From Hydrolagus colliei (lineage: Eukaryota), in the NCBI GenBank assembly GCA_035084275.1, contig CM068745.1:14694001-14758000 (forward strand): 64,000 nt of DNA. The letters are read 5' to 3'. The notes under the pieces are model-generated. The model was given only the letters and a program-made list of their open reading frames with translations. It searched no databases and was not told where the DNA came from. Positions 2,908-51,100 of this stretch are shown here, one piece after another. Numbering within the stretch: the first letter of the stretch is position 1; every line of letters begins with the position of its first letter. A program made the translations under genes and the position numbers.

Positions 2908-3597
2908 CTTCTTGAACCGCTCCTGTGGTCACCTGCTTCTCTTTCCCCCTTGAAACTGTGGTTGAATTAGATTGTGGAGAAGTCTCAAAATGAACGGGGA
3001 ATGAGTAGAGACTCAGGCAGAGTACAAACACCATTAAAACACCAAGGCCAACTGCGTAAGAGGGCTGAGTGGCCTGTACATTCTTTGTAGAGTTTTGTAC
3101 CTAGTCAAGGGAGGTGAACACATAAGCCTGAAAATTCGTTTCTGGCTCCTCTTTAATGTGGACACCACACGAGGCAATCTGTGAATGAATTTTTGTATAC
3201 TGCAATCGTTTTGTGCGGTTGCTGAATACAAGCAAATAATCCTGCCTTAGTGGTAGTGCCTTGGTAACTTCAGTTGTGAATCACATCATAGTTTGTTCTT
3301 ATGTAGAAGAAAGCATCATTTGAATTCCTATTTAGACCGGTTTCTAATCACCCAGCCTGGTTAAAGCTGCAGCAGCAATATTGAGCACACCGTTTTGAGC
3401 TCGTAGGACAGAGAGCAGCTGTGAATGAGACCCGAGTGTGTCTGTCCTCCAAGGAGATTGACCAGTTTTATCATGTTTAGTCAGTGCTTGTGGTTTGTCA
3501 ATGCATGTGCTCACCTGAAAGAAAAAGAACCAAAAAGATAGTTTCAGTCAATGTAAGTACTGTGTGTGCCTTGTCTCTACAACAATACATTAATTCC

Positions 3598-4520
3598 AAT
3601 AACAGCAACAACTTTGATTTATATAGCGCCCTCCACCCGGACGGCGTCTCAGAGCGCTTCACAATAGCAGATCCCGGGACCGAGCCAGGGGCAGGGGTAG
3701 AAAGGTAACCAAAGGAGCGGTCGAAGAGAAAGGTCTTTAGCTGTGACCTGAAACTGGGAAGAGAAGGGGCGAGGTGAAGGGAGTGAGGAAGGGAGTTCCA
3801 GAGCCTTGGGGCGTGGTGGCTGAAGGCACGGCCACCGAGGGTGGAGCGGAGGACTCGGGGGACATGGAGGAGACCAGACCCAGAGGAGCGAAGGCAGCGG
3901 GTGCTGGGTTGGGGGGGAGAGTAGATCAGAGAGGTAGGGGGGTGCAGAGGAGTGGAGGGATTTGAAAACACGGGTGAGGATCTTGAAGTCAATCCTCTCT
4001 GGGATAGGGAGCCAGTGAAGTCTGGTAAGGACTGGGGTAATGGGGGAGCGAAGCTTGGAGCGGGTGAGTATGCGGGTGGCAGAGTTTTGGATTAGCTGGG
4101 TTTTGTGGATTGTGGTGGAGGGGAGACCGGTGAGGAGGGTGTTGTAATAATCTAGCCGAGAGGTGACAAAGGCGTGGACCAAGGTTTCAGCAGTATTTGG
4201 GGTGAGGTATTGCCGGAGACGGGCGATCCGTCAGAGGTGGTAGAAGGCGGTGCTGGGGAGGGACCGGATGTGGGGGAGGAAGACAGTTGGGGATTGAACC
4301 CGACGCCTAGGTTGTGCAGAGGTTCGGAGAGTTTTAGGGGCAGGCCGGGAAGGTGGAGGAGGTGAGAGCCGTGCGAATGGAGACGTTGACGAGAGCCAAA
4401 GAGTATGGCCTCCGTCTTGTCAACATTCAGCGGCAAAAAATTTGCGCTCATCCAGCTCCTGATGTCTGACAGGCAGGCTGACAGAACATCAGGGGACTGG
4501 GGGTCACAAGATGAAGTGGA
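3598..4520 (-). mobile_element. L2-clade LINE 3' fragment (ORF2 RT C-terminus plus 3' tail), frameshifted
   Basis: ORFs 4152..4451, 3649..4182 and 3498..3992 give WM..NFL.LN..KTE, HAFVTSRLDY.N.LL.GLP, ITPVL..LHWLPI..RIDFK and GGRAFS..APRLWNSLP; (TTG)n-like tail. Confidence 0.92.
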
Positions 4521-5268
4521 GTTAGTGGTTAAGTGGTAAATGCATTACATGATATACCTCAAAACTGTAGAGATCAGAAAGGTCGTAGATTAGATCTCTG
4601 AACTGTGTTGAATCAATTCACTACAGTTAGAACAGAATTAAGTTTTGTGATGTGATGGAGGTGATGGGGTGGGTGGTTGGGAGAGACTCAAACTGCTAGA
4701 ATTTGCTGTCTACACCGACAGATGTACTGTGGTCACTTGGGTGGTGGGGTGAGCGTCAAGGATGGACCTCAGTATGGATCAAGGAAAGAAGAAGCTAGTT
4801 CCTTGCAAAGGGGAAGAGGCAATCAGAGGACAAAGTATCAAAGTGCTCTCAATCACAGAGTTAATTTCAAAACATTACAACAGCTAAATCCTCTCTCACT
4901 TGGAAATGGTGCATGGCCAAGGAGACTAGTCTAGAACAGAATTGGGGGTCAATTGTGCCTTGATTTAGTAGGATTTTATCATTGAAGCAACTTGAAATCT
5001 GACTCATGGGACTGCTGTTCCAATTTCGTCTATATTTGTAGCAGATCCGTTGAGCTGGCTCATGTCACACATCAGCAGGAACACCCTCCCAAATTAGATT
5101 CAGTTAGAGCCAGGTTCCCATGAGGCAGCATCATATTCCAAATTCTATTAAAAATCATTGTAATACCAATCTGAATATGAATAGGTTACAGAGATAACAC
5201 ATTGAGCTAAGATGCTCCTTGGTTGGACAGTGATGAGGATTTTGTTTACAAAGAGAGGGTCAATATTT

Positions 5269-9000: not shown

Positions 9001-9529
9001 TTTTTTACAATGATATACGTGTCATAGCATAATTGCTGCCTTGTTTGTGCTCAGATTTCCTTAGATCAATGCGGATGTGTGTGACATGAAAACAATGTGT
9101 ATTGTTGATCATGTGACTGCTAGTATACCGAAAAGTTATGCTTTAAGGTATTGCATTTCATAATATGTCAAATAAACATGTGCCATAACAGTATCATCTT
9201 ACCAGACAGAGTTTCAGCAGTTTTCCTTAATGTACCTATTATTCCTGTAAAGAGTACCATGTTCCTTAAACTACTGTACTATAGATGATCAGTGTATTCC
9301 ACATGTGACAGTATTAAGTCTTAAGTGCTCTGTGACACAACCCCACTATATAAATGCAAGTTGTTGTTGTTAAATTGATGCAAAATCTGATCTTACAGCA
9401 AAAAGAAAAGTGATTCAGCACATAAAGTTTCTCAGTCGCCTGGAGCTTTACATTACCTATTCAGTCTGCCTATTTTGGTTTTGCGTTCTAGCTACCTCTG
9501 CTTTCCGGATAATCGGGATTCCACAAATA

Positions 9530-9895
9530 TATATTTTCATATCTGCGATCTCCTAATCCCCTACCAACCTGCCCGCCCCTCTGCTCAGCAGGCACCGGCC
9601 TGCCCCCCGACTCACCTGCCCCACCATTGGCGGGCGAGCCTTCAGCCACTCTGCCCCCAACCACTGGAACTCCATCCCACTGTCCCTCTGCCTCGCCCCA
9701 CTTCCTGGCCTCCTTCAAATCCCGCCTCAAGACCCTCCTCTTCAATGGTCTCATTGGTCACCCCAAATGTCCCCCTTTCCCCCAAAACTCCCAGTCCCTG
9801 ACCCCAGCTAGGATCTGAAACAATGACTGTCCATCGCCTTGGGACGTCCTCCAGATGTGAAAGGCACTAAACGCGTAATTTTGTTGTTGTTGTTT
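9530..9895 (+). mobile_element. L2 LINE 3' fragment
   Basis: GGRAFS..P..WNS region, gatgtgaaaggcact..(ttg)n tail; similar to 19280-19755. Confidence 0.85.
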
Positions 9896-18916: not shown

Positions 18917-19279
18917 ATTTGAGCGGACTGGGTGAACCCAATGGTTTGCTTCTGTTACTATTCCCTCATAGAAAAGTAAGTAGTTTTAGCTCATTCAAGC
19001 TAATCTGAAGGATAAGGTGGAAAAAGCTTGAAGTGTGCCCTCCAGATGTTTCAAAAATATTTCCAGCCTAAATAGTTAAGAATTTCTGTAAATTTCCTGA
19101 ATTTCAACTGTCTGAAGCCTGTGCATTGATCCGTAAAATTTGAATCTCAGAATTAAAAGGTTGAGAAATCTTTCTCTCGCCACAGTTCTTTTATTTGTAC
19201 TCCCCTCTCTATTTTCTTCTGTCTGTCGCAATCTAATTTCTCAATTGCTTATCTTTCAGTTTACTGTCTGTTCCAAACT

Positions 19280-19755
19280 CCTTGACCCCATCTTCCCCAT
19301 CCTCACCCAACACCATTGGCTCCCCATCATCCAGAGGATTCAATTCAAGATCCTGGACCTTACACTTAAAGCCTTCCACAATCTTGCCCCACCCTACATC
19401 TGTGATCTCCTATCCCTTTACCAACCTGCCTGCCCCCTCTGCTCAGCAGGCTCTGGTCTGCTCTACATCCCCTGACCCCCCACCCACCCACCATTGGCGA
19501 GCGAGCCTTTAGCCACTCTGCCCCCAACCTCTGGAACTCCATTCTGCAGTCCCTCCGCCTCGCCCCCTCCCTGGCCTCCTTCAAGTCTCGCCTCAAGACT
19601 CTCCTCTTTGATGGACCCATCGGCAACTCCTAATCCCCCACCTTCCCTCCCATCTCCTGTCCTCAGCTTGGCTCTGAAGCAGTGAGTGTCCAGCGCTTTC
19701 GGACGTCCACCTGATGTGAAAGGCGCTATACACGTGTAATTTTGTTGTTGTTGTT
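19280..19755 (+). mobile_element. L2 LINE 3' fragment
   Basis: PILTQHHWLPIIQRIQFKIL...FHNLAPPYICDLL; tail cagcgctttcggacgtcc..gtgaaaggcgctata..(ttg)n. Confidence 0.9.
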
Positions 19756-20683
19756 GTCTCTCTGTGCCAACACTTCTCTATTTGACTGCCCCCATCTCTT
19801 TTTCTGGGCCTTTCCGACACTCTGTTCTTCCGTCTCTGTTGTACCTCTGACTATTATTTTCACTATCTTTCAGCTTTTCTCTCATTCATGATAGCACTCC
19901 AGCTCTCTGCTTGTCTCTATCTAGCTTCCAATTACATGCACACATTTTAAAACATTTCTAACTTTCGATGCATTTTACTTAAAAGTCCCACTTTGTATGA
20001 AGAATTAAAGTCAACTCCATTACTTGATATTGTTTGTATAAATGCATCGTGCATGAACCAAGAGGTTTTGCCCTTAAAATGTTATACTGATTGTCACTCT
20101 TAAAAGTGGTTTTGTGATAATTGTTCCTTACCAGATCTTATCAGATCTCAGCCTAAAATACCCTACTATTTTAAAACATAAGATTACACAATACAATTTA
20201 CATGTGTATGGCACCGTTGACATTGGGGAGCTGAGTCTGGAACAATATTCAAAACGGATTGAAGATACCTGAAGAACAATAATATTAAAAGATACAGGGA
20301 ATGGCAGGAAAATTAGTTTGGATCGGTTAGCTCTCATGAAGGGAGCGCGCCCCAATCCTGACACAATATGCCAACTTCATAGGATCAGTTTGGGTAAAGA
20401 AGGCCCTTCAACCCATCTGTCCTCATTCACACAGAACAACTCACTCTGCTAACCCCCTCCCACCATCATAGTTTCAAGCTGCCATTTAAATGTCCTGAAT
20501 GCAGCCACCCTTCCTGGTACCTGTTTCAATCATTAATTACCTTCTCAGTAAAGAAAAAAAAAACTGGTATCGTATCTGAACAGAAATTACCCTTTGCAAC
20601 TCTAAACATTTGTCTGGCTCAGTGCATCGTAAAATATTGATCTGGGTTCATTTTTCTTTTTTTTAATTTTATGCACTTCTTGT

Positions 20684-30100: not shown

Positions 30101-33100
30101 GGGAGGCCATAAGATACTGGGCGCGATGCAGACAGCCAGGTTAAAGGCATTCATCTGGTTCTCCTCAGCTTGCTGCTCGATGCTGTGAAGAACTCCAAAA
30201 ACATGATGTAGGAGCAGATTGTTGATTCTTGGAAGTAATTCCAGCAGCCTGGAGAAAATTAATCATCAAGCCACAGGGTCAACCATAACATCAGAATTTA
30301 TTTTATTTTTTTAATCAATATAAATTGGTGGTTGGGCCAACAGCCTTTCTGACCCCACTCTGGAACTCTTTCCCAGAGTCTCATCACATCCCTTTCCTTG
30401 CCTCTGTCTCAAGACCTTCCTCCTTCATTGCACCTTTTGTCATCTTCCCCCACCCACCCCCCCATCCCTCTCAAACCCAACTCCAGTTCAGATGTATCTC
30501 TCAACTGCCCAGTGACTTGCGACAACTTCCTGACGTGAAAGGCACTATATAAATGCCATTGTTGTTGTTTTGGAGCATTAAACTGTGACAGAGCTTGACC
30601 CCAACCTAAGAGAGGGAAGCTGATCATAGTCACAATCAAAGAGGAAGGTCTTCAGGTACGATCTGAAGAAAGGCAAAGACGGGAAAGGCGGAGGGATTGT
30701 GGCACTCACAGTATATATATTCCCATAATTTTTTCAATCAAATCAGGATGATTTCTGTTTCCACTGCCTTTCCTATCCCAGGGGCCCTGAGACTAATTGT
30801 AGGACTACTCTTAGTTAGATCAGCTAACTTAACACAGACTGAGGATCGAACCTGGAACCTGGTATATCTGGCTCAACTCCACTCTGTGGAGCAAATTCAC
30901 CATCCAAACTCACTGAGGGTTTTGACATAAATCATCACAAGATTTCTTGAACCTCAACCAACTATTTTGGTTCAAGGCAGAATGCTTTTTAGCACCACAG
31001 TTTGACAATTTAATACATCCCAGACATTAGCTTTTTGTTTCTGAGTGCAAATGTTAGATTGTAGATCTTTTTTCAGCTCTACTCTAGATTGTACCATTAA
31101 TATTTTTAATTACAATAACATGTTGCTGTAGAAAATAATAGATCAAATATCAATTCTTGGAAAACGCCAAGACCCTCTGTCCTGGAATACTGCCGTCAGT
31201 TTAATTCTTATCATTTTTAGACTAATATTTCTGGCATCACTGAAGCGTAACTCAAGTATTCAGTGACATAATAGGGAAAAGCTGGCAATAAATAATTAAT
31301 AATGAAGGAGCTGAAATGTGCTATTGAGAAGTAAGTAACCCTTGGTAAACAATCCTGATAAGGATATAAAATCACATTCAAGACCTTGAAAATATTAAGA
31401 GTTCGAAGCGTTTTTCTCTATTGCATTGTTACTCTACTAAATAATTATTTTAACAAACCACTGAGGGATGCTTTCCATTATGGGGGATACAGATATTGTA
31501 TGTACTAGGAACAAAAACAGAAGTTGCTGGGAAAACTCAGCAGGTCAGGCAACATCCATGGAGAAAGGAAAAGGAGTCAACATTTCGGGTCTATAACCCT
31601 TCGTCAGAACCGTCAGAACTTCGTCAGGTTCTGACGAAGGGTTATAGACCCAAAACGTTGACTCCTTTTCCTTTCTCCATGGATGCTGCCTGACCTGCTG
31701 AGTTTCCCCAGCAACTTCTGTTTTTGTTTCAGATTCTCAGCTTCTGTAGTATATTGTGTTTTGTTGTATGTACTAGGGCTTGATTATTGCTTAAATGGAA
31801 CTATTTGTGGGGTGTAACTGGCATGCTTGTAGTTAACAATTCTCACATAATCATGCAGCGAGATATTGAGAGCAGTAATGCACTATATTACAATTTACAT
31901 TTATATAGTGCATTTCATGTTGAGAGGATGTCTCAAAGTGCTTAACAGAGGGGAAAGATAACTATAAACTGGGTCAAAGAAATGTGTTTTGAGAGATGCC
32001 TTCAAAGATGGGAGGGAGGGAGTCAGAGGGACTCCAGGATAGTTTCTGAGTGATTGCTGTTGATGGTGGGGCAGGCAGGCAAGAGAAATAACACTCAGTA
32101 CTGAAATGCTAATTTACTTCCATGACTGTGATGGTGCGAAGCACTCAGCACTCACCACACCTTGCAAGATCTTCTACTGACCTTTGGATCTCCTTTATCT
32201 TCTCCTTGTGACTTCCCCTTTCCATTGCTGTCATCCAGCTGTTGTACAGCTCTGCGGAGAAAATACTGCCAGGAATATTCCGAAGGAAGTCCTGAATTTA
32301 CAATAGATAAATAACTGTTTAGGAGAGTATCAAACATTACAAATTTTTAAAAAACTTTTCCACTGACTCTTTGCTACCTCTCCAACTTGCTTGTACCGCA
32401 CTTCTCAACCCACCCCCTTTGCTCAGCTGGCTCCGACTTTCTCTCGTTTCCTCTGCTCCAGTATTGGTGGCCATGCTTTCAGTCACCACGCCCTGAGAAT
32501 TTGAATCTCTTTGCCTCAATCACTCTGCATTGCCTTAGCTTGTCCGTCTCAAGACCCTCCTCTTCTTAGGTCCTGCACTGCTTTGGTCACCTCTCCTTTC
32601 TCTCTGGTTTGGCGTCAAGTTGCGCCATTGTTAAGTGCTCCAAGATGCTACCCCACATGAAAAAGACTGTATAAATGCAAGTTGCTGCTGTTGTATTTCA
32701 CAATTAGAGAATCCCTAGCAAAAGTTAACATTTCAAGAAGCAAAAGGAGAGAAAAGTGTTGGGGCAACATAAAATGTATTTTCCAGATATCTCTATGGGT
32801 TATTTCTGTTTTATAAATAATATCATTGGTAATATTTTTTTTAAATGGGCGCTTACATAATTTGCCCAAAGGATTGCTTCAGAAAGGATTGTAAAACGCT
32901 TTGCGAATTATCCAAGATTTCTTAGGTAAAGTGGACTGACAGCTGGATTAGTTCTTTTTCCATTTCAGTACCTGAGCCACAACCCACATTCTGACCGTTA
33001 TGCATGTCACAGACTCACAGGAAATCATGTCAATTAGAAGCCCAAAATCTTCTCTGATCCGTTGAAGGGAAAACTGTGAGTTTCCACATCCAGCGATTTA

Positions 33101-36100
33101 TTGCAATAATTATGTAACTTGAAAGTATAGAAATGGTGTCAATTATATTTACTTTCTAAGGTTCTGCGGCATTTAAAATTGGTTCACTCCACCTAATGAA
33201 TCGCACTGGGATTATTCATTTTCCAAGAGGCTCTTCCTTGCAGGCACAGTGTGCTAATGGGAGGTGCTTATAGTGGTCCCATGCCAAGAATGCAGCCTTG
33301 TTTCACTGAACACTGTTGCTCTGTTGCCAGAGTGAAATATCTTTTTTGACATCTATACTATTCAAACTGTAAGAACTGTTCTACTGTAGGATTAGAATTT
33401 TATTCTGCTTTCTTTGAGATAATTGAACAGATTGCCAAGTGCGTCCAGCTGCTTCTTGATTCAGAGGTGTAAAAAATATTCATTTATATATATTTTTTAA
33501 ACAGGGATACATTTTTCCTTTCACTCCCCTCCTCCCCCAGGTGGTTGATCAGCTTCATGCATATTTTTTTGATCTTGGGATGGAGTTGGGTCTATTGGCT
33601 ATTCATCCACGTTTCGCCCACAAATATACAGTCAATTCACTTTAGAGTACTGTATATTCTGTGAAGCGCTTTGAGATGTCTAGAAGACGTGAAAAAGCGC
33701 CATATTAAAATGCAAGGATCATTATTATTACAGACAATGAATCGCGGTACCAGCCTGATTAAGTTGGTAGCACTCTTGCCTATGAGGTTGTGGGTTCAAT
33801 ACCCTTTGAGCTCACACTCTGGGCCAGAGGTCTCCACCAGTTGATCACCTCGCCATTAAGCATGATTAAAAAGACAAGAAGGATCGATAGAACTGTGTGA
33901 CTATTTCGTCCAATTGAAAACAGAGCCAGGTGCATGAAGTGGAGATAAAACGATAAACTTTTTTGTTGAGATTGCGGTAAATATCGCTTCTTGTTTTTAG
34001 CGAGCATGTGCGAGATGCCACCTTGAGACAATCAACCGGTTGAAAACCCTGGTCTACGTTGCCACCCCAAGCTGCATTGTCAGAGATGTCAGCCTTAAGA
34101 TGAGATATTAAACTGATGTCCTTTAAGAACATAAGAATTAGGAGCAGGAGTAGGCCATTCGGCCCTTCGAGCCTGCTCCGCTATTCAATAAGATCATGGC
34201 TGATCTTCTCACCTAACTCTGATTACCCGCCCCATCCCCATATCCCCTAATCCCTCTATTTTTTAAAAATCTATCAGTCTCAGCCTTGAAAATGTTCAAG
34301 GACTGAGCATCTTCAGCCTTCTGGGGTAGTGAATTCTGAGTGAAGAAATGTTTCCTCAACTCTGTTCTAGAAGGCTGACCCTTAATTTTAAGACTGTGAC
34401 CCCTGGTTATAGATTCTCCTACCAGGGGAAACAGTCCCTCAGTGCCTACTTTATCTAGCCCTTTAAGAATCTTATATGTTTCTACTTGTGGAAGTTAAAG
34501 ATCCAAGTGGACTATTCAAACAGAGAAGGGAGTTTGTCCTTGCGAATAATCCCCCAAATTAACCTAGAACTGATTATTTACTTCATAGCTGTTCATGGGA
34601 TAATGCTGTGTGCAATCTGGCTGTACTTTCACCTGCACAGTCAATACAAGTTAAAGCAAATACTGTGAAGCCCTTTGACACTATAGCAAATGTAAGGATT
34701 ACGATTATTTGTCTGTAACTTCACCAACCCTGAGGAAGCATGAATTAACAAGAACATTTAACAACTACAATTGCAATTGGATAACAACAGCAATAGGAAT
34801 CATCATTTCCCCTCAGAGATGGAAGGTTCCTGAATTAGGTCTTTTGGAAGGTGCTTGAATTAGGTTTTTCTCTCTGCAGCCCACACAAAAACTGATGACA
34901 GATTGGGAGGAAATCATCCAGGGTTCTCCTCATCTCTATGCCATGAAACCTGCTGAAGGTATACACTGGGGATGGAGCTCAGTTGTGATATCCCTCCCAT
35001 AGTCAAACAACCTGCTGACACTCATTGTCCACGACCATGAAAAATGGGCATGTGGACAAGGTATCAGAGTACAGGCAGCCAAGGACCCAACAGGACTCCA
35101 TGCCTCCACAAGAGGAAATTTGGTGGAAGTGACTTTGTCTGAACCCTACTTTTTAGCCGTTTTATTGCCGTGAGCAAATTGCTGTGTTTGCCCAGAAAAC
35201 ACATTGTCACAACCCCTTCGAGTACATCCCATAAAGTGCAGTTGATATATTTTTGGCTTTTTAAATTCTATATGAGTCATTTTCTGGCCTTTTTATGTTA
35301 TTGCATACTTGAAAGGATTTGGGGAAAGAGCTGGAAAGATTGATGTCAAGGCAAGAGGGCGACTTTGAGAAAACAGGTAGCATTTAGAAAACATGCTAGG
35401 ACAAATGTGTTGAGCCCATACAACAACTGATGACAGATTGGGAGGAAATCTGTCTGTGTCATTTACAAAACCATTGGTGTGAAACTTTCTGATCACAATA
35501 ATATCCAGGCAACAGTGTAAAGAGAAGTCCAGGGTTAATGCTGTGCAAATGATGATTTGTGTCAATGAAAGATTGAAGGATGGAAATGACTTGTGTGCAC
35601 ATTTTACCTCTGTGCTACTTTCCTGCCTTTGCCTCACTGAGCATGGAAGCTGTACCCTCACATCAGGAAACCTGAATAACATTTCATTCCCAGCAATGGT
35701 AAAATGAGAGAGGCAGTTCATGCATATGTGAAACACAATGCAGCCTGACTCCATTAATTAAAGTGCCTTACACCAGCATGGCAAGCTCCTCATTTAATCA
35801 GAAAAGGGTGAGTTGTAAATTTAGATTAATAAGGTTTTGGAAACCTTTGGTAGCATGATCATTTTCTGTGCTGCAACAAAACAATAATGACAACTTGTAT
35901 ATATAATATAATAATAACCCTTGCATTTAGATGTAGCACTTTTCATGTCTTCGAGACATCCCAAAGCACTTCACAGAATATAATATTTGTGAGCGAACGC
36001 CAATTGCATGCACACATCAGTTTCGCATAAACAGACGTGAATTGAGTGATCAAATTATTTTTTATATAAAAAATAATTTTGAGAGATTACTATCAGGTGT

Positions 36101-39100: not shown

Positions 39101-42100
39101 TTCGTGCCATTAAATCAGTTGTGTCAGCATGACAGGCCCTAATTGTATCATAAATTCCAGTAAAATATCCATGATACGAAAGCCAATTCCTGGTTCTATC
39201 TAATCTCTGCTACATAGTGTTTGTGTTGTATTGAATTATAATTCTTAAAGTTGTAATTCCACTTAATGCTTGACATACCCTTGGCAGAATTCAAAATCAA
39301 AATCAAAATTGATTCATATTGGGTCTAATAATGTTTGAGACATCTCAAAACGCCTTACAGAATACACTGTAAAATAAATTCACTGTATATTTTGTGGGCA
39401 AAACATACTATTTTAAATCACCCAGCATAGTCTTAAATGCAGTATTAATTTTGAAGCCAGTTTTCCATCATTTCTGTTAAGAACTACTGCTAACTGAAAG
39501 CTAAGACAAAATTCAACAATCGACCAAATTCTTGACACTGGTGAGCAAATGGTCAGGTTTGAAGAGGTCAATGAAGATTGCTGCTCTAATAGCTGTGAAC
39601 CCTGCTTTAGTGTATTTAAAATAAGATACAACTGGTTCCAGGATTAGAAAAATAATAAATCTTGCTTAGCAGCAACCAAGACAGCGACAAGGAATTTTGT
39701 GAGAGAAATGCTGACCAAACAATTGTGCTGAAACTGGAAGGGATTTGCTTCAGATCAATGGCCAGGCTAAACAAATGGATGGAACAATAACAACAACTTT
39801 GATTTATATAGCGCCCTCCACACTGAACGGCGTCTCAGAGCGCTTCAAAACAATGTGACATTTCATAACAGAATCAATGTGATACATCATATCAATAAGA
39901 CCACATTATGTAATGTCACATTCGTCACTCCCACAATTAAATTCCACAACCTTATTCCCATTGCATCATGTCCGCTAGAACTCTATGGAGGTGCTACAGA
40001 CATTATCAATGAGGTTAATGAAGGATGAACGCGGAAACCTCCATCTCCTTTCCATAAAATACCAATTTCCATTTACAGTATATAGCGGCTTTCAGTTCAG
40101 GAGAAAATCCCAAAGCCCTGAGATGCTGCTAGATTTCTGATGATTTAATAATAACAATCCTTGCATTTGAAATAGCACTTTTCACGTCTACTAGACGTCT
40201 CAAAGAACTTCACAGAATATACTGTGAAGTGAATTGGCTGTATATTTTTGTGGGCGATTTTCATCATTTGGATTATTTTAATATTAGAAAGTCACTTGCC
40301 AGTATTAAGCATCTCACGTTAGATAAGCAGAATGAGTAAGCTCTGAGTTCAACCGTAGTCACATCACAGATGTGTCAAGCATTTGAACAGTTACAGTGGA
40401 AATGTGACCGTACTGTAATCATTTTTCCTCTCTTTAAATCCTGAATGTTTATTTCAAGGCACTGTTGTTATAGGCAATACGGAAAAACAAGGAGGAAAAT
40501 ATTTCTGAAGCTACAAGTGTTGTTTTTTGATGTACAAAAATGATTTCAAGAAAGGTCATTTCCCATTTGGCAGCAAATGCTTTCGTTTCTCGAGCTGAAT
40601 TCCCGGTGAATAGTAAACTGGCAGGAATTTGAAAAGGGAGGTTTTCTTTTCATAATTGCAGGTATTAGAATAACTGTTTCCCTGAAATCCCAAGGGAAAA
40701 AATCTATAAGTTTTCCTTTGTTCCGGAAGAGAGAAAAAAAAAATCCCATACCTTTTCTCCCATTTTTCAAACACAATCTACTGCCACATAACACTATTCA
40801 ACATCTGTCATCCATCTGGAATTTGAAGCTCATTTTTCACTAAAGGATGATGCCAGGTTTAAATAATAAACCAATAACTCTTAAGTTTATTTGACGGACT
40901 TCAACATCTGTGAGAAATCCTTACCAGTAATCTGCTGGCTCGATGCCAAATGTGTTGGCTTCAGTGTGAACTGGCACTGCATATCCACGGGCAACTGCTC
41001 GATGATGAAGGACCTTTGGAGGTCCAGAGGGAAGATGGAGTCTTTGCATCCTTGTGGCTGGCCAGCTGCTTCTCGAATATGACTCATTTTAATGCTGAAT
41101 GGATATTCATGGCCTATTGCAAAAAAACAAAGCAAATCTTCTAACCCGTCCAAAAAAACCACAATAATAAAATTCTGAAACATCAAATCAATTTGTCCCA
41201 ATGACATCCTATAAATATAATATTATGAATTCAAATTATAATTAAATATTAGTAATGCAAAAGCCTAGTTCCTAGTACCATTTGAAGTATGGGACTATAT
41301 GTTGATTGTGGAGCTCCTGTGGTTTAGCGATTAGAGCACTTGTCTTGCAAGCTGGGGAGACCAAGCTGGGAAGACCTGAGTTCGAATCCAGGCAGGTCAG
41401 GGCGAAACCTTAGGCAAGTTTCTTTACTCCTCACACCTAATAATAATAATCCCTCCAAAAAAACCACAATAATAAAATTGGTCATTTCAATCCACGACTG
41501 TTTGTGCGACACTGATGTGCGCAATTGGCTGCAATTGCCCACAATTGGCTGCAATTGCCCACAAACATACAGTCAATTCACTTTACAGTATATTCTGTGA
41601 AGCGCTTTGGGATGTTGATAAGATGTGAAAAGCGCTATATCAAATGCAAGCATTATTATTATTATTATTGTGTTTGTTGGAGAATAATTGTTAAAACGCT
41701 AAATTCCTCTAGATTTCATCTATTCATGTTGTATTTTTGATCATGCAGAATTATGTCAAATTTCTAAATACAGCATCAATTTTGAAGTCAGTTTTCTGTA
41801 AGTTCTTTTTAATAACTACAGAAATCTGACTTCAAAATTGAACAATTTGCCAAATTCTGACCATTCTAAAATACTACATAAATGGAATAAATCTGAACCG
41901 AGGTAGAATTTCACCCAGGTTTTTGTCACCAGATTATTTAATAAAAACAATTATCAAACATACTTGAAGTTGCATGTGATGTTTTAGAAATGCAATAATT
42001 GCACATCTTTTTAAGAAATACGATAAGAAATCCTGCATATTAGACCATATATTTCTATAAACTACACCTAACATAGAATCCACATCATGAAGCTGGAGTC

Positions 42101-45100: not shown

Positions 45101-48100
45101 GATCATTGCAATTACACTTTGCAGCTCTGTTAAGGTCACTGGTTCTCCTGTGTCATCTGTAGACATTCTGTGTGCTTCAGAGTAACAATTCTCCCTTTTC
45201 CGAAAAGCCTCTCCATGCGTTGTTGTCATGTAATGCTCAAAAGTGCTTGCTCTGCCAGAAAACATTCTCCTCGTCTTATAATGTAAAATTTATTCGATCA
45301 CATGTGTATGAAATGCTCTGTTTTTGAAGCATGGTTTCCTGTCCACAATTCTCTGTGTTGGTCACAAACCAATCTATTTGTTCCATTTCTTGGCAATTCA
45401 AAAATGGCCTCACCAACTTTTAGGGATACAATTTAATAATAGTCCTACCATTTGTTATAAAGCCTTTCACATTCCAGTAATGCCAGAAGGATGACTCAGG
45501 ATTTATTGTGAAGATCAAGTGAATACCAATTTACTTAGGAGTTTGTTGGCCAGGACACCAGGAGAAACTCCATTCTTTTTCCATCAAGATCTTTAGCGTT
45601 CACCTGAACATGCACACAAAACCTCAGTCTAACGTCTTACCTGAAGGACAGGTCCTCTAACAATGCAACACTCCCCCAGCATCAGCCAAGACTGTGAGAG
45701 TTCAAAGTCCCGACATGGGGCTTAAATCCATAACCTTCTGACTCTTTCTCGAGGCAAGAGTACTACCAATTAAGCCAACTATTGATGAATTTATCATTGC
45801 TAATAAATGAAGGTGTCTAGCATTCTGAAGGCAAGCATGGCCTATTCATTGCATATTTATAATTGGGCATCTCTTTTAGGTCAGAAAAAGAATGCTCATA
45901 TTAGTAATTGGCACTTAATAGATATACACAGAGGAAATGTACACTCTGGCATGTAAAATGGGATAATAATAATCCCAGATAACACCCTTCAATGTTAACC
46001 TTGTGAAGAGAAATTGCCAAAGCTGGGAATGTATGCACTGGGTAAGAAATGATTGAGAGAATAATGCTTTTATTTTAAACCAACGCAGCTACGGTCTTGT
46101 CAACATTCATCATTCAATCCTAGAATCTTATGGCACAAAAGGAGGCCATTCGACCCATCGAGTCTGTGCTGGCTCTTTGAAAAGAGCAATTTAGTTGTAG
46201 GAAGTTTTCGCTCATCCAGGCTTCGATGTCCGCCAGGCAACCCAAGAGGACCTGGAGTTCAGGCTAAACTTTAGGATAAATTATATACACAAGCTAGCTC
46301 CAAAATCCTATTGAAAAATGACCCAAGAAGAGATGGTCTGAAGAGAGGTGATGAGGCAAACATTGACATGGTCTCCATCCAAAACAAGAACAATGATCGT
46401 GTCTCTCTTTGTTGTGATCGGAACTGCATGAACTGGGGGAGGACTGCATTGTCGGAGGTGCCATCTTGCAGATGACAAGTTAAATTGAGGCCCCATCTGC
46501 CTGTTCAGATGGACGTTATAAGATCCTGTAGCACGATTTAAAAAGGGACAGGAATTTGTCCCTGTATCCAAGCTGAGAATTCCTGAGATAAAACTGGTAG
46601 CTCACTACTTGACTGATTATGGGCATTACTGTATACAAACTGGCTGCCACATTCCCCTACAAAATATATGGTTACTATGCTTTACTGTACAAAGTGAATC
46701 GTTTTGAGACATGAAAGGTGCTGTATTAGCTGCAAGCACAGAATATTATTATTCCATCAACCAAAGATTTCATTGCAGGAAATTGCTGGCTGTAACAAGG
46801 AGTGTGCAGCCATAAAAGAGAGGGCCAAGCTCTTCAATTAAACAGTCATATTTCCAAAGAAAGTTCCAAATCAATGTAAGACCAGTTCTTTTTCTGGAAG
46901 CAACTTGGCCTCATCTTTTATGGCTGTGCAGTCTCTTTTACCTCAGTCAGCAATTTCCTACAAGGCAACCTTTGGACCGTGATATCCCTGCATATACAGG
47001 ATATTCCCAGGCATTCCTTTTGTGGATACACAGAGGCATCTTTCATCTGAGCTTCCACTCTCACTTCCTCTTTGAAAACAGTTCTATATACTCTCAGTCC
47101 CTTTCAATCGCACACCTTCTCAAAAATACAACCAAATATCTCACAGATGCATCTTGATGAATCCAGAAATTCAATAGGGCCAAATCCAAAATGTCAGATA
47201 CCTTCTTGTAGTTAATAAAAATAATGCCCATATTTTCTCACTCATTTATTTTAGAAATTTGAAGTCATTTAAGCTAGGTGCAAAAATCGCTTTGGCAGCA
47301 ATGTAGCCCAGTTAGATAAGAACATAAGAATTTGCTAAGAGAAAGAAGACCAAGATACATCTAGTTCACCTTCCACCACCCTGGAAGTCACCTAACATGT
47401 CATGTCCCAAACTATAAATTGTATTCAAGATATGATTGTGCAGCAGAAATCGATCTAATTTGTTCTTTGTTCAACAGGAGGCTTAGTGTGTCTTCTATCA
47501 TTGTGTTGCTGCTAGCTAACTATCTGACCATAATATGTTTTGCACATCAACTTGGCACCTATTTTAGCTGGAACACTGATTCAGTCCAAATAACTGGGAA
47601 ATGTTCTCCCTTTAAAATAGACATGTGCATCCTAAATGGAACATCTCTGAGCAAAATAGAGCTTGGCTCACTTGCAGATGTTATACACTAAGAATTTGTT
47701 TAAAAAAACTCACAATAAGAAATTGCATTTACATAGCAGCCTTCACACAGGAGCGCATTTTAGAGGATAGCACAGTGATGGGGTTAGGTGCTAAACGAGG
47801 GAGAAAGAGAAACAGGTGACCAAAGGAATGGTTCAAGAGGTAATAATAATCCTTGCATTTAATATAACGCTTTTCACATCTTCTAGACGTCTCAAAGTGC
47901 TTCACAGAATATACTGTAAAGTGAATTGAATGTATATTTGTGGGCGAAACTCGGCAGCCAATTGCATACAGCAATGTCCCACAAACTCATGCATTGAATG
48001 ATCAAACTTTTTTTTTTTTTCTTGAGGGATTATTACCAGGCATGTAGAGTAGGGAAACTTGCTCAAGGTTTCATCCTGCCAGGAATCAAACCCAGATCTC

Positions 48101-51100
48101 TTGTTTGCTAGGTGAGTGCTCTAAAGTTACAGGACTCCACAAGGTAGGTCCTAAATTGAGGTTTAAAGAGAGGTAGAGGGGAAGAGGCAAAGGGAGGCAG
48201 TGTATTTGAGGCAGGGAATCCCAGAGATTAGAGTTGTAGCACCCTTCACAAAGGATAGCATCTTGAAGTACTTCACAGGGACAGTGAAGTTAATTGATAT
48301 CCTAACTTTCAACAACTTTATTGTAGATCTCACCTGATCCATGGCAAATGTTGGATCTCATTAGACACTTAATGGTTGTTTAAACATTTTGCCATCCTGT
48401 TTGTAGTTGTTCAGCTCTTTACTTCTTTCAAGGACATGAAATTCAACTGTGGAGAGCTTTTCCTCTCTGTATTTTATTGACTTTGCAGCACAAAACTAAT
48501 TCTTTGTTATCGTTTTGATCTTCTGGATGATGACATTTGTCTTTAGTGTATTCAAGTTTTTTGGCATCGATGATTAAGTTAGATTTAACTGACATTTCAT
48601 GCTTTATCTTCTGCATCATCTCATTGTACCTTGGCTTTGGTTTGGTTTGGCAGTTAGATGTGTTTTTATGAGATATCATTATTCATGAAGATCTAAAAGC
48701 ATGTCCAAGGTCTTGTGGATATTTTTACCCTCTTAATTCCAATAACTTCTTCAGCAGAGTCTCTCAGACTTGGCCATCAGCTCACCTCTGTCATACTTCA
48801 ACCACAGGAAATTTATTCCCACTACTATCTGAGAAGATTGAGAGACAACACGATTGCTGTCTGTAAGATTCTAAAGGGGCAAGACAATATAGATCATGTC
48901 ATGTTGTTTCAACTTGTCCAGAATAGTAAAACCAGAGGACATGGCCTGCGATCGAAGGGTGGTAAATTCAGAACAAATCTACGCAAACACTATTTAATTG
49001 AGCAAATAGTGAATAGGCTCCCTATGGAGATGGTTGAAGCAAATAGTGTTCATTCTTTCAAACACAGATTAGATAGTTTTCTTTTAGGGAATAACATTAT
49101 GATATAGGTAGATAGGTAGTTTGGGACATATGTGCAAGCGATTGTCAGGAAGGTGGAAGGCAAACTAAATGGACCTTGGTCTTTTTTTGTCTAGCATTTC
49201 TTGTGTTCTCATGTTCGTATCTCTACAACTGGTGGGTTTTGGAGTATTTCCAGGTAAAGTCCATCTTCTTTACAGAACTGGAGCATAGATAGTGTTTAAA
49301 TGCTCAGTGAAGGTTTGTGGTCAGGACTACTGTCAAATTTGCAGTGCTTATTGACAAGGGTGGATACTGAGTAGCATACTAGCAATACTAGCATATTGCA
49401 CACAGAACAATTATTTAATTCATAACTTTTTGTGCTGACGATGTGAAAAGGAAAGCTCTTGGGGGTTCAGTTTAGAGCTGAACTGGCCCTAACATAACAT
49501 GTTTGCTAACAGAATGCTGGAATCAAGCCAGTCATCTGTGGCGGTCTTGGTAGTCTAGTTCCTGAGCCAGACAGGTCTGTAGTATTCCAGGGTACAGTTT
49601 AGGATAGCACAGCCAGCCTGGCTCATTAACCGGACTTGGAAGGGCAGATAAGTCACTGCGAGCAGGGATTCCTTCCAATTGGCTCCTGTTAACTCTGCAT
49701 AACCTAACGGATAATCTGGACCTAGCTGGACAAGTTGCGGGAAAGTTTGCCAAACGGTGTTATCAATCACAAGCTATGCAGTTTTAACTGGTTAGACTCC
49801 AGCAGTAAACCAACACACACTCTGGCGTCCCCAAGCCTTGGTTCTTGCCAACCTATACCAAATGCTTTCTGGAATTAGATAAGCAGGAAGCGTCCCTCCA
49901 GGGAGAGAGTGCGCATTCCATTCCAACAATCTATCTCTGGAATTTCCACATGTCGATGGGATGCATGGAATTCTCAATTTGATTTGGATACTCTTCAGCG
50001 CGGTGATGGGTTTCCGCATGTGTCAAGACACTGACGAAAAAAACAACTTGGGAATCTTTCTTGTACTGTAGTCATTCAAGTTGCCATGAACACATTTTCC
50101 CAAGGTCTGGTTTCCAGATGACAAAATTGTAAAACAACCTCAATACTGACAGTCATATCCAATGCAGAACCACAGAAATGTACAGTGCAGAAGGAGATTA
50201 TTTGGCCGATAGGTTTATGCAAATTCTCAGAAAGAATTATCCTTTTATTTCCCATGTCCTGCCTTTCTCCATACCCTTTTCCATTTCTCCTTTTCAAATA
50301 TTTATCTAATCCCCATTTAAAATGTAATATTTTAGCTTCCAGGTAGGGCATGACTAAAACAAGTCAGGCAAAGACTGAACAATAATGCAGATTTCAATAT
50401 ACAGTGAAAGCCTGTTTATCCGGCAACTGATCAATCGTAATTTCCGTATAACAGGCACATCCCCCAAAAAGTCTGCATTCGATTAACCAGAATTTATCTG
50501 GAAAAAGCTTCTTTTTTTTTTTTTGCGTCTTCGGCCGAATATCCGGCACGTGCTTTAACTGGCATTGGCCAGGTCCCGAGGGTGCCGGATAAACGGGCTT
50601 TTACTGTACTTAGTTGATAATGAATGCAACTGATTCCTTAGACTTTTTTTTAATGGAAAATGATGCAGATTGCTTTTCATAAAAACAATACTATAATTTC
50701 TAGCACCACTTCATCATAATGCTATTATTCTAAACAGGCTGAATTCTGTTTTTAACAATTGTGACATTGTTTAATGTCAATATATGCAAATACGCGTCAT
50801 GATTTCATTTCATAAATACACAAAGTCTGTGACTATAAACAGATATCTGGGGAATAATGTACAATAATGTAATGTTTCACTGCAGAGAGAATTTATTATT
50901 GGTGTGTACTAGTGCGGGAGATGTTGCGGAATAACACCTTCAACATAAATGATTTATTTGGGGAATGATTAAAACGATGGTTGTATGAGGTAGATTTTGC
51001 GGTATTTCTTAACTTTATTTCTGTGTTAAGAAATACGAATGGGAAAGTATGTTAGTCACCAAAAACTCAAGGAAAATCCTTTCGTAAAGTAGGTTGAGCT

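Follow-up and report, generated by a model that had tools for sequence, protein, structure and literature searches.

An intron of ARHGAP20 in Hydrolagus colliei carries a 254-bp insert in which two hammerhead-bearing repeat ends are joined head to head. The pair likely arose by one Penelope-like retrotransposition and is probably inactive today, because each hammerhead motif carries a mutation and the two are predicted to be base-paired within a single long hairpin. We give this reading a probability of about 0.7. All coordinates refer to the window, that is, the whole 64-kb stretch of DNA that was analysed, and the features of the insert and its host intron are as follows.

30249..32181, - strand: ARHGAP20 host intron between two RhoGAP-domain exons
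31496..31509, no strand: left copy of the putative 14-bp target-site duplication, 14/14 match to 31764-31777
31510..31611, - strand: inverted 5′-truncated copy without tail, hammerhead-sense on the - strand, 98/102 complementary to 31627-31728
31575..31611, - strand: minimal type I hammerhead in which G12 (31586) is retained and U replaces C15.2 (31582), with the cut predicted after 31579
31612..31626, - strand: junction filler made of repeats of the arm's own 5′ end, from direct view of the sequence
31627..31728, + strand: direct 5′-truncated copy, hammerhead-sense on the + strand, from the arm alignment
31627..31663, + strand: minimal type I hammerhead, G12 changed to A (31652), predicted cut after 31659
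31683..31763, + strand: ATG-led frame, putative start of the ORF of the parent element, open through arm end and tail
31729..31763, + strand: one-sided 35-nt tail, from the arm alignment and the family end points
31764..31777, no strand: right copy of the putative 14-bp target-site duplication, 14/14 match to 31496-31509

The first-pass annotation had described an insert of this layout, and its measurements held throughout. The exact flanking repeat TTGTATGTACTAGG is identical at 14 of 14 positions on the two sides, for which the chance is about 2 × 10^-6 over 300 places, and the insert between the two copies spans 31510-31763. The two arms of 102 nt differ from perfect complementarity at four positions (31532, 31552, 31582 and 31586), the 15-nt spacer between them is built of micro-repeats, and the unpaired tail is found on one end only. 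Read on the - strand, this spacer comprises a repeat of the CTGACGAA box, 8-9 nt long, and a repeat of GTTCTGACG that measures 9 nt. The frame that opens with the ATG at 31683 has 15 codons to the arm end and 27 codons with the tail. The target is 64% AT. Contig record 23 of run X4 (31723-31928) spans the right junction with 0 differences, and an X4 contig covers the left junction with only 26 letters inside the insert.

The insert had also been placed in an intron with its - arm sense to the pre-mRNA, and the gene structure bears this out: ARHGAP20 lies on the - strand, with the intron running from 32181 to 30249, and therefore the left arm is the one that is sense to the pre-mRNA. The insert begins 404 nt behind the intron donor. 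Assignment of the gene was made by Pfam RhoGAP and RHG20_PH matches, and its last exon has 89% identity to Callorhinchus milii versus 43-58% to sharks and rays among the matches listed. An acceptor-like site at 31505 (- strand), with a pyrimidine tract and TAG, is formed by the arm end and the target duplication together. It has 14 pyrimidines in 17 positions, the range being 10-17 in 13 acceptor-like sites picked near ARHGAP20 exons; it is predicted to sit inside the hairpin helix described below, and the nearest GT[AG]AG-type donor behind it is 591 nt away. The short end of the repeat family is also located at an acceptor-like TTTCAG (31727-31732, + strand). X4 and the window differ at 31329, where X4 lacks 4 bases, and also at 32132 and 32349, each of which is a polymorphism or an assembly difference in the intron or flank.

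The hammerhead pattern reported earlier was recovered on both arms, with C3 at 31631 (+) and 31607 (-). Each arm has the C3-A9 box, an extra A after A9, G10.1-C11.1, a helix II of 4-5 bp and a helix I of 4 bp, two of which are G-U. According to Cervera and de la Pena (PMC4209133), the minimal hammerhead is marked by an extra base between 9 and 10.1, G10.1-C11.1, a palindromic 15.2-16.2 and a helix I that is short; the same paper already reports dual minimal motifs on opposite strands, 100-700 bp apart. The loss on the + arm of the catalytic G, which is described as the general base (PMC6155905), was seen again as A at G12, and so was its retention on the - arm. The - arm is mutated as well, having U instead of C at 15.2, a change that was present in the earlier pattern but was given no weight there; it is intact at C3-A9, G12-A14, A15.1, U16.1, U17 and G10.1-C11.1. 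Neither arm combines G12-A13-A14-A15.1 with a palindromic 15.2-16.2, as the + arm has G12A and the - arm has U15.2-G16.2. Both changes, of G12 on the + arm and of C15.2 on the - arm, are located at CpG sites. The latter turns the self-complementary ACGU into AUGU, and the calculated energy of the 4-bp dimer helix III is +2.6 kcal/mol for AUGU versus -1.7 kcal/mol for ACGU.

Both strands of the 64-kb window were scanned with a relaxed minimal-hammerhead descriptor made for this analysis, a check that had been proposed together with a search of Rfam. With any base allowed at position 12 the descriptor found just these two sites, with G12 required it found 1 site, and in 100 order-1 Markov control windows it found 0. 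The Rfam search gave no hammerhead family, either in the 7 matches obtained with E up to 10 or in the 8 that reached the gathering threshold. We infer that this miss arises because the models are based on canonical motifs, which have helix III, and that it is no argument against the motif. The 7 matches at E up to 10 were all rejected as generic hairpin or chance, and among the Rfam matches mir-577 and MIR1507 were far under the gathering score and reflect the hairpin only. Scans for the minimal-hammerhead pattern gave 0 sites in viral contigs, 0 in prokaryote genomes and no match in phages; metagenome scans gave 0 and then 7 loci, which we discarded as chance, the matches being only 21-23 nt long and the contigs having 53-67% GC.

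On the transcribed strand the predicted fold of the insert is a helix of 102 bp without interruption (-201.3 kcal/mol, z = -27, 0/200 shuffles), in line with the hairpin of about 100 bp that had been anticipated. The helices of the hammerhead have a probability of <10^-15 in this model, and a fold forced into them lies +49 kcal/mol above the hairpin. Read on the - strand, each of the four arm differences is a C-to-T change, and therefore the pairs are kept as G-U in the pre-mRNA. This could be a hint of selection for the hairpin, although the chance of such a pattern is about 1 in 8.

Self-cleavage at the insert is unlikely under the predicted fold. The idea that the - arm might cleave as a dimer was not supported: the sense arm carries U15.2, no second sense hammerhead was found in the 64-kb window (ARHGAP20 extends beyond it), and the motif would be trapped by the antisense arm, which is made first. 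That the - arm is a working ribozyme cutting the intron, singly or as a dimer, is therefore hardly credible to us, even with its core intact at the positions given above and with a motif of Anolis that cuts in the presence of its protein (PMC11167929). The palindrome needed by the dimer helix III is broken by U15.2, and the hairpin competes with the single sense motif at the energy difference given above; published minimal motifs showed no cleavage as monomers and poor cleavage as dimers (PMC4209133), and 8/9 Xenopus dimers were without cutting (bioRxiv 10.64898/2026.07.22.740005). It is somewhat less far-fetched, though still quite improbable, that the hairpin has been kept for an effect on the host, as a substrate of ADAR or Dicer or as a modifier of ARHGAP20 splicing. 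The predicted helix is unbroken on the transcribed strand with all four differences as G-U, and both the distance of the insert from the donor and the pyrimidine-rich acceptor-like site at 31505 favor it. Nevertheless, an arm divergence of 4% with two CpG changes resembles neutral ageing, every young inverted pair would fold likewise, and the nearest donor of the GT[AG]AG type is far past the acceptor-like site.

The family to which the insert belongs was viewed in Logan contigs of four runs (X4, X6, X12 and X13; 4 of 13), mapped to 30900-32400 at 80% likeness. The contigs are short, and the 21,770 mapped records include those of a second repeat at about 31870-32070. In X4, the summed contig depth, which is no copy number, was 4 × 10^5 to 5 × 10^6 over the arms of the insert versus about 70 on the flanks, and contigs of X6, X12 and X13 did not cover the flanks adjoining the insert. 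This result shows that the insert belongs to a very abundant repeat family.

Absence of the conserved core from the family had been named beforehand as a result that would speak against the hammerhead; the core is kept in the majority sequence of loose ends in X12 (33 records, agreement 0.77) and X13 (16 records, 0.71). The loose-end majority reads helix II GGGUC/GACCC (5 bp), a 3-nt loop, GAAA, C-G and UU, and the family majority thus has GAAA together with the palindromic 15.2-16.2, unlike the arms of the insert. The G at position 31652 accounts for 32-58% of depth, although the left arm, too, is matched by records that carry G, and the C15.2 state at 31582 for 40-55%. The 40 variant rows considered, out of 52, leave C3-A9, A13-A15.1 and U16.1 unvaried. 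At 31644/31594, both arms have A versus G in about 88-90% of the X4 depth, and therefore one source copy gave rise to both.

Records extending upstream of 31628 numbered 230 in X4, 177 in X6, 44 in X12 and 18 in X13, with an agreement of 0.38-0.48, and therefore many family members exceed the insert copy in length. The 3′ ends of the family fall at two points about 35 nt apart, at about 31729-31731 or about 31761-31765, and the records leaving at the former pass into AT-rich sequence of low agreement. Many family records hold one arm only. Among the best 15 of 188 joints, 12 were head-to-head at differing points (5 in both X4 and X6), one was an internal deletion and two were going back; one of the latter is a 95-nt tandem at the short end, from 31731 to 31637, present in 2 X4 contigs. 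The 5′ edge of the hammerhead (31607-31612 / 31628) is the end of several other copies as well, directly behind a CAG in the upstream majority sequence of the family, and it is possible that this edge is a splice or start site of the element RNA.

Within the window, a remnant of the family arm end and tail lies at 2638-2683 on the - strand (43-46 nt, 74% identity). Its score of 42 is the best of 740 tiles (mean 21.6, sd 3.6), it adjoins a SINE-like stretch, and no flanking duplication was found around it. Other weak local alignments in the window, with scores of 39 and below, were set aside as chance. In the chondrichthyan literature on Penelope and hammerhead elements we found no description of the insert family, which is not mentioned in the accessible portions of PMC6155905, PMC4350176, PMC6431247 and PMC7936874; it may well be present in Repbase or Dfam.

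Judged from its sequence, the insert very probably derives from, and works like, a Penelope-like element, with no clade assignment. None of the 127 ORFs of 75 aa or more in the window had a Pfam match to RT or GIY-YIG, and no RT or GIY-YIG sequence was found within the insert; protein searches with the short frames (34 and 51 aa) gave 0 matches, such short queries being weak tests. Matches of a short frame in the Atlas at 0.76-0.77 were below the Atlas noise level and were dropped. As no RT/GIY-YIG partner was found, Penelope-like membership rests on structure. The earlier suggestion of a non-autonomous mini-element derived from a Penelope-like element (PLE) can thus be retained in part: the Penelope-like origin agrees with the minimal hammerhead, the head-to-head copy, the 35-nt tail and the long putative target-site duplication, whereas a dedicated non-autonomous element is not established, because the family runs on upstream and a heavily 5′-truncated insertion fits equally.

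Penelope-like insertions are known to have an inverted 5′-truncated copy next to the 5′ end and a tail of 30-40 bp at one end (PMC8557442; PMC8969392), and the rotifer cases show the head-to-head orientation, duplications of 8-10 bp and a 31-bp tail (PMC3846280). The insert has the inverted 5′-truncated copy in head-to-head position, as do the 12 family joints of this kind, and no partial tandem copy (pseudo-LTR), of which the 95-nt tandem is the one example among the best 15 of 188 joints. Compared with Penelope/Poseidon and Neptune (PMC8557442 Fig. 2 legend; PMC3846280), the insert shares the head-to-head truncated copy, the one-end tail, the putative target duplication, the hammerhead near the 3′ end and the short ATG frame entering the tail, but differs in having no ORF remnant between the heads. 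The rotifer pLTR holds the first 12 codons of the ORF, or 22 with the tail (PMC3846280), versus 15 and 27 codons in the frame of the insert. With the minimal hammerheads of the PLE type (PMC4209133), the motifs share CUGANGA, the extra base, helix II with G10.1-C11.1, GAAA, N-N and UH, as well as a 4-bp helix I, the lack of helix III, thousands of dispersed copies and pairs on opposite strands; they differ by G12A on the + arm and U15.2 on the - arm. Table S1 and the Fig. S3 alignment of that paper, in their accessible portions, contain no chondrichthyan species.

Similar features are found in Poseidon of Anolis carolinensis (PAc), whose protein, in vitro, nicks and extends both strands on an uncleaved RNA template, with two internal start sites that define the tail (PMC11167929). 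The likeness to PAc includes a hammerhead upstream of two end points bracketing the tail, insertion from uncleaved RNA and an AT-rich target. PAc has its ORF start at helix II and 26 nt upstream of the cut (PMC11167929), whereas in the insert the sole ATG-led frame that reads through the tail without a stop has its ATG 24 nt downstream of the cut. Non-LTR retrozymes (PMC7229834; bioRxiv 10.64898/2026.07.22.740005) are likewise non-coding, carry a type I hammerhead and are derived from or related to the pLTR, and they are reported from one chondrichthyan genome with a mean unit of 363 bp (bioRxiv 10.64898/2026.07.22.740005). They are, however, head-to-tail tandem units releasing circular RNA. 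The motifs of the insert are located one per strand, so that no two head-to-tail units exist on the same strand and no unit could be released; with neither a head-to-tail array nor a canonical hammerhead in the insert, the retrozyme-like designation was not upheld.

In the mechanism that we propose, a Penelope-type RT/GIY-YIG protein would have nicked both strands, 14 bp apart, at an AT-rich site, and the 3′ end of an uncleaved element RNA would have been copied twice from two start points. Both arms begin 32 nt upstream of the cut site, which argues that the template was uncleaved. The distal start would give 137 nt, comprising arm and tail, and the proximal start would give the 102 nt of the arm alone; each copy would end at the hammerhead's 5′ edge, at which the enzyme may have stuttered, with two restarts of 8-9 nt, before the heads were joined. 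Fold-back self-priming, as proposed in PMC3846280, would lead to the identical product and would explain the second arm equally well. The length of the flanking duplication, 14 bp, speaks against a Penelope-like insertion in being longer than the 8-10 bp of the rotifer cases (PMC3846280). Later CpG decay would have altered G12 in the motif of one arm and C15.2 in that of the opposite arm. During transcription of ARHGAP20 the antisense arm would be made before the sense motif and could capture the latter on its emergence, and the hairpin would be removed together with the intron.

In a MITE, a constant internal part is flanked by inverted repeats that form the two ends of the element. The long inverted arms and the flanking duplication of the insert could recall a MITE or a fold-back DNA transposon in which the likeness to the hammerhead is incidental, but its right terminus, with the 35-nt tail, lies outside the inverted repeat, junctions vary from copy to copy, many records have one arm only, and none of the 100 control windows contained the motif; we regard this origin as very improbable. 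Better served by the data, yet in our estimate still unlikely, is a dedicated short non-coding element of about 137 nt, reaching from hammerhead to tail, whose 5′ end is fixed by transcription or splicing and which is mobilized in trans by a Penelope-like protein. Six of the 12 head-to-head joints among the best 15 of 188 have an arm end at 31607-31612, and in five such joints the bridging letters are too few to accommodate a longer arm. The upstream majority ends in CCCCA before G31628, which creates CAG at the start of helix I, and an intron of Drosophila virilis also ends at the start of helix I (PMC4209133); non-autonomous derivatives of the pLTR are known (PMC8557442; bioRxiv 10.64898/2026.07.22.740005). 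On the other hand, the 18-230 records per run that continue upstream of 31628, at low agreement, speak against such an element, and the list from which the best 15 of 188 joints come is biased to arms ending where the query ends. We therefore prefer a single Penelope-like insertion of two truncated repeat ends.

On that preferred reading the insert is probably an unremarkable, inactive relic whose kind is already known, and the single locus matters little, as all its features are within the published account of Penelope-like insertions. Its value is that of a compact example of the mechanism, with two end points, an uncleaved template and a junction stutter, and of an entry point to an abundant repeat family of chimaeras that carries minimal hammerheads. 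If 5′ ends pile up at the hammerhead edge, thousands of natural junctions would bear on the choice between two-strand priming and fold-back self-priming. A more speculative extension, which we hold to be rather doubtful, is that an ORF-less RNA of about 137 nt headed by the hammerhead has been hugely amplified in chimaeras as a Penelope equivalent of a SINE, with its 5′ end at the ribozyme edge, perhaps a splice acceptor, and that priming on two strands yields self-silencing head-to-head pairs which seed introns with 100-bp dsRNA.

Several other features were observed in the window. The second high-depth repeat fragment, at about 31870-32070, lies 100 nt to the right of the insert and has inverted partial matches at 30517-30555 and 32655-32684. 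An old imperfect palindrome (41711-41894, 184 bp, 71%), an inverted pair (46761-46975, 70 bp, 76%) and a perfect 28-bp A/T palindrome (36052-36079) are present, and the hammerhead descriptor found no motif in these three. Open frames at 3500-4544 (-), 9391-9818, 19137-19777 and 48697-49107, which had no Pfam match at E 0.01, resemble, on inspection by eye, decayed C-termini of LINE reverse transcriptases (L2/CR1-type). Eight tRNA-like matches at the Rfam gathering score (5274, 7533, 14133, 15939, 36128, 54012, 55988 and 59832) have imperfect acceptor stems and are likely the heads of tRNA-derived SINEs; SINEs of holocephalans have been described (PMC5499810).
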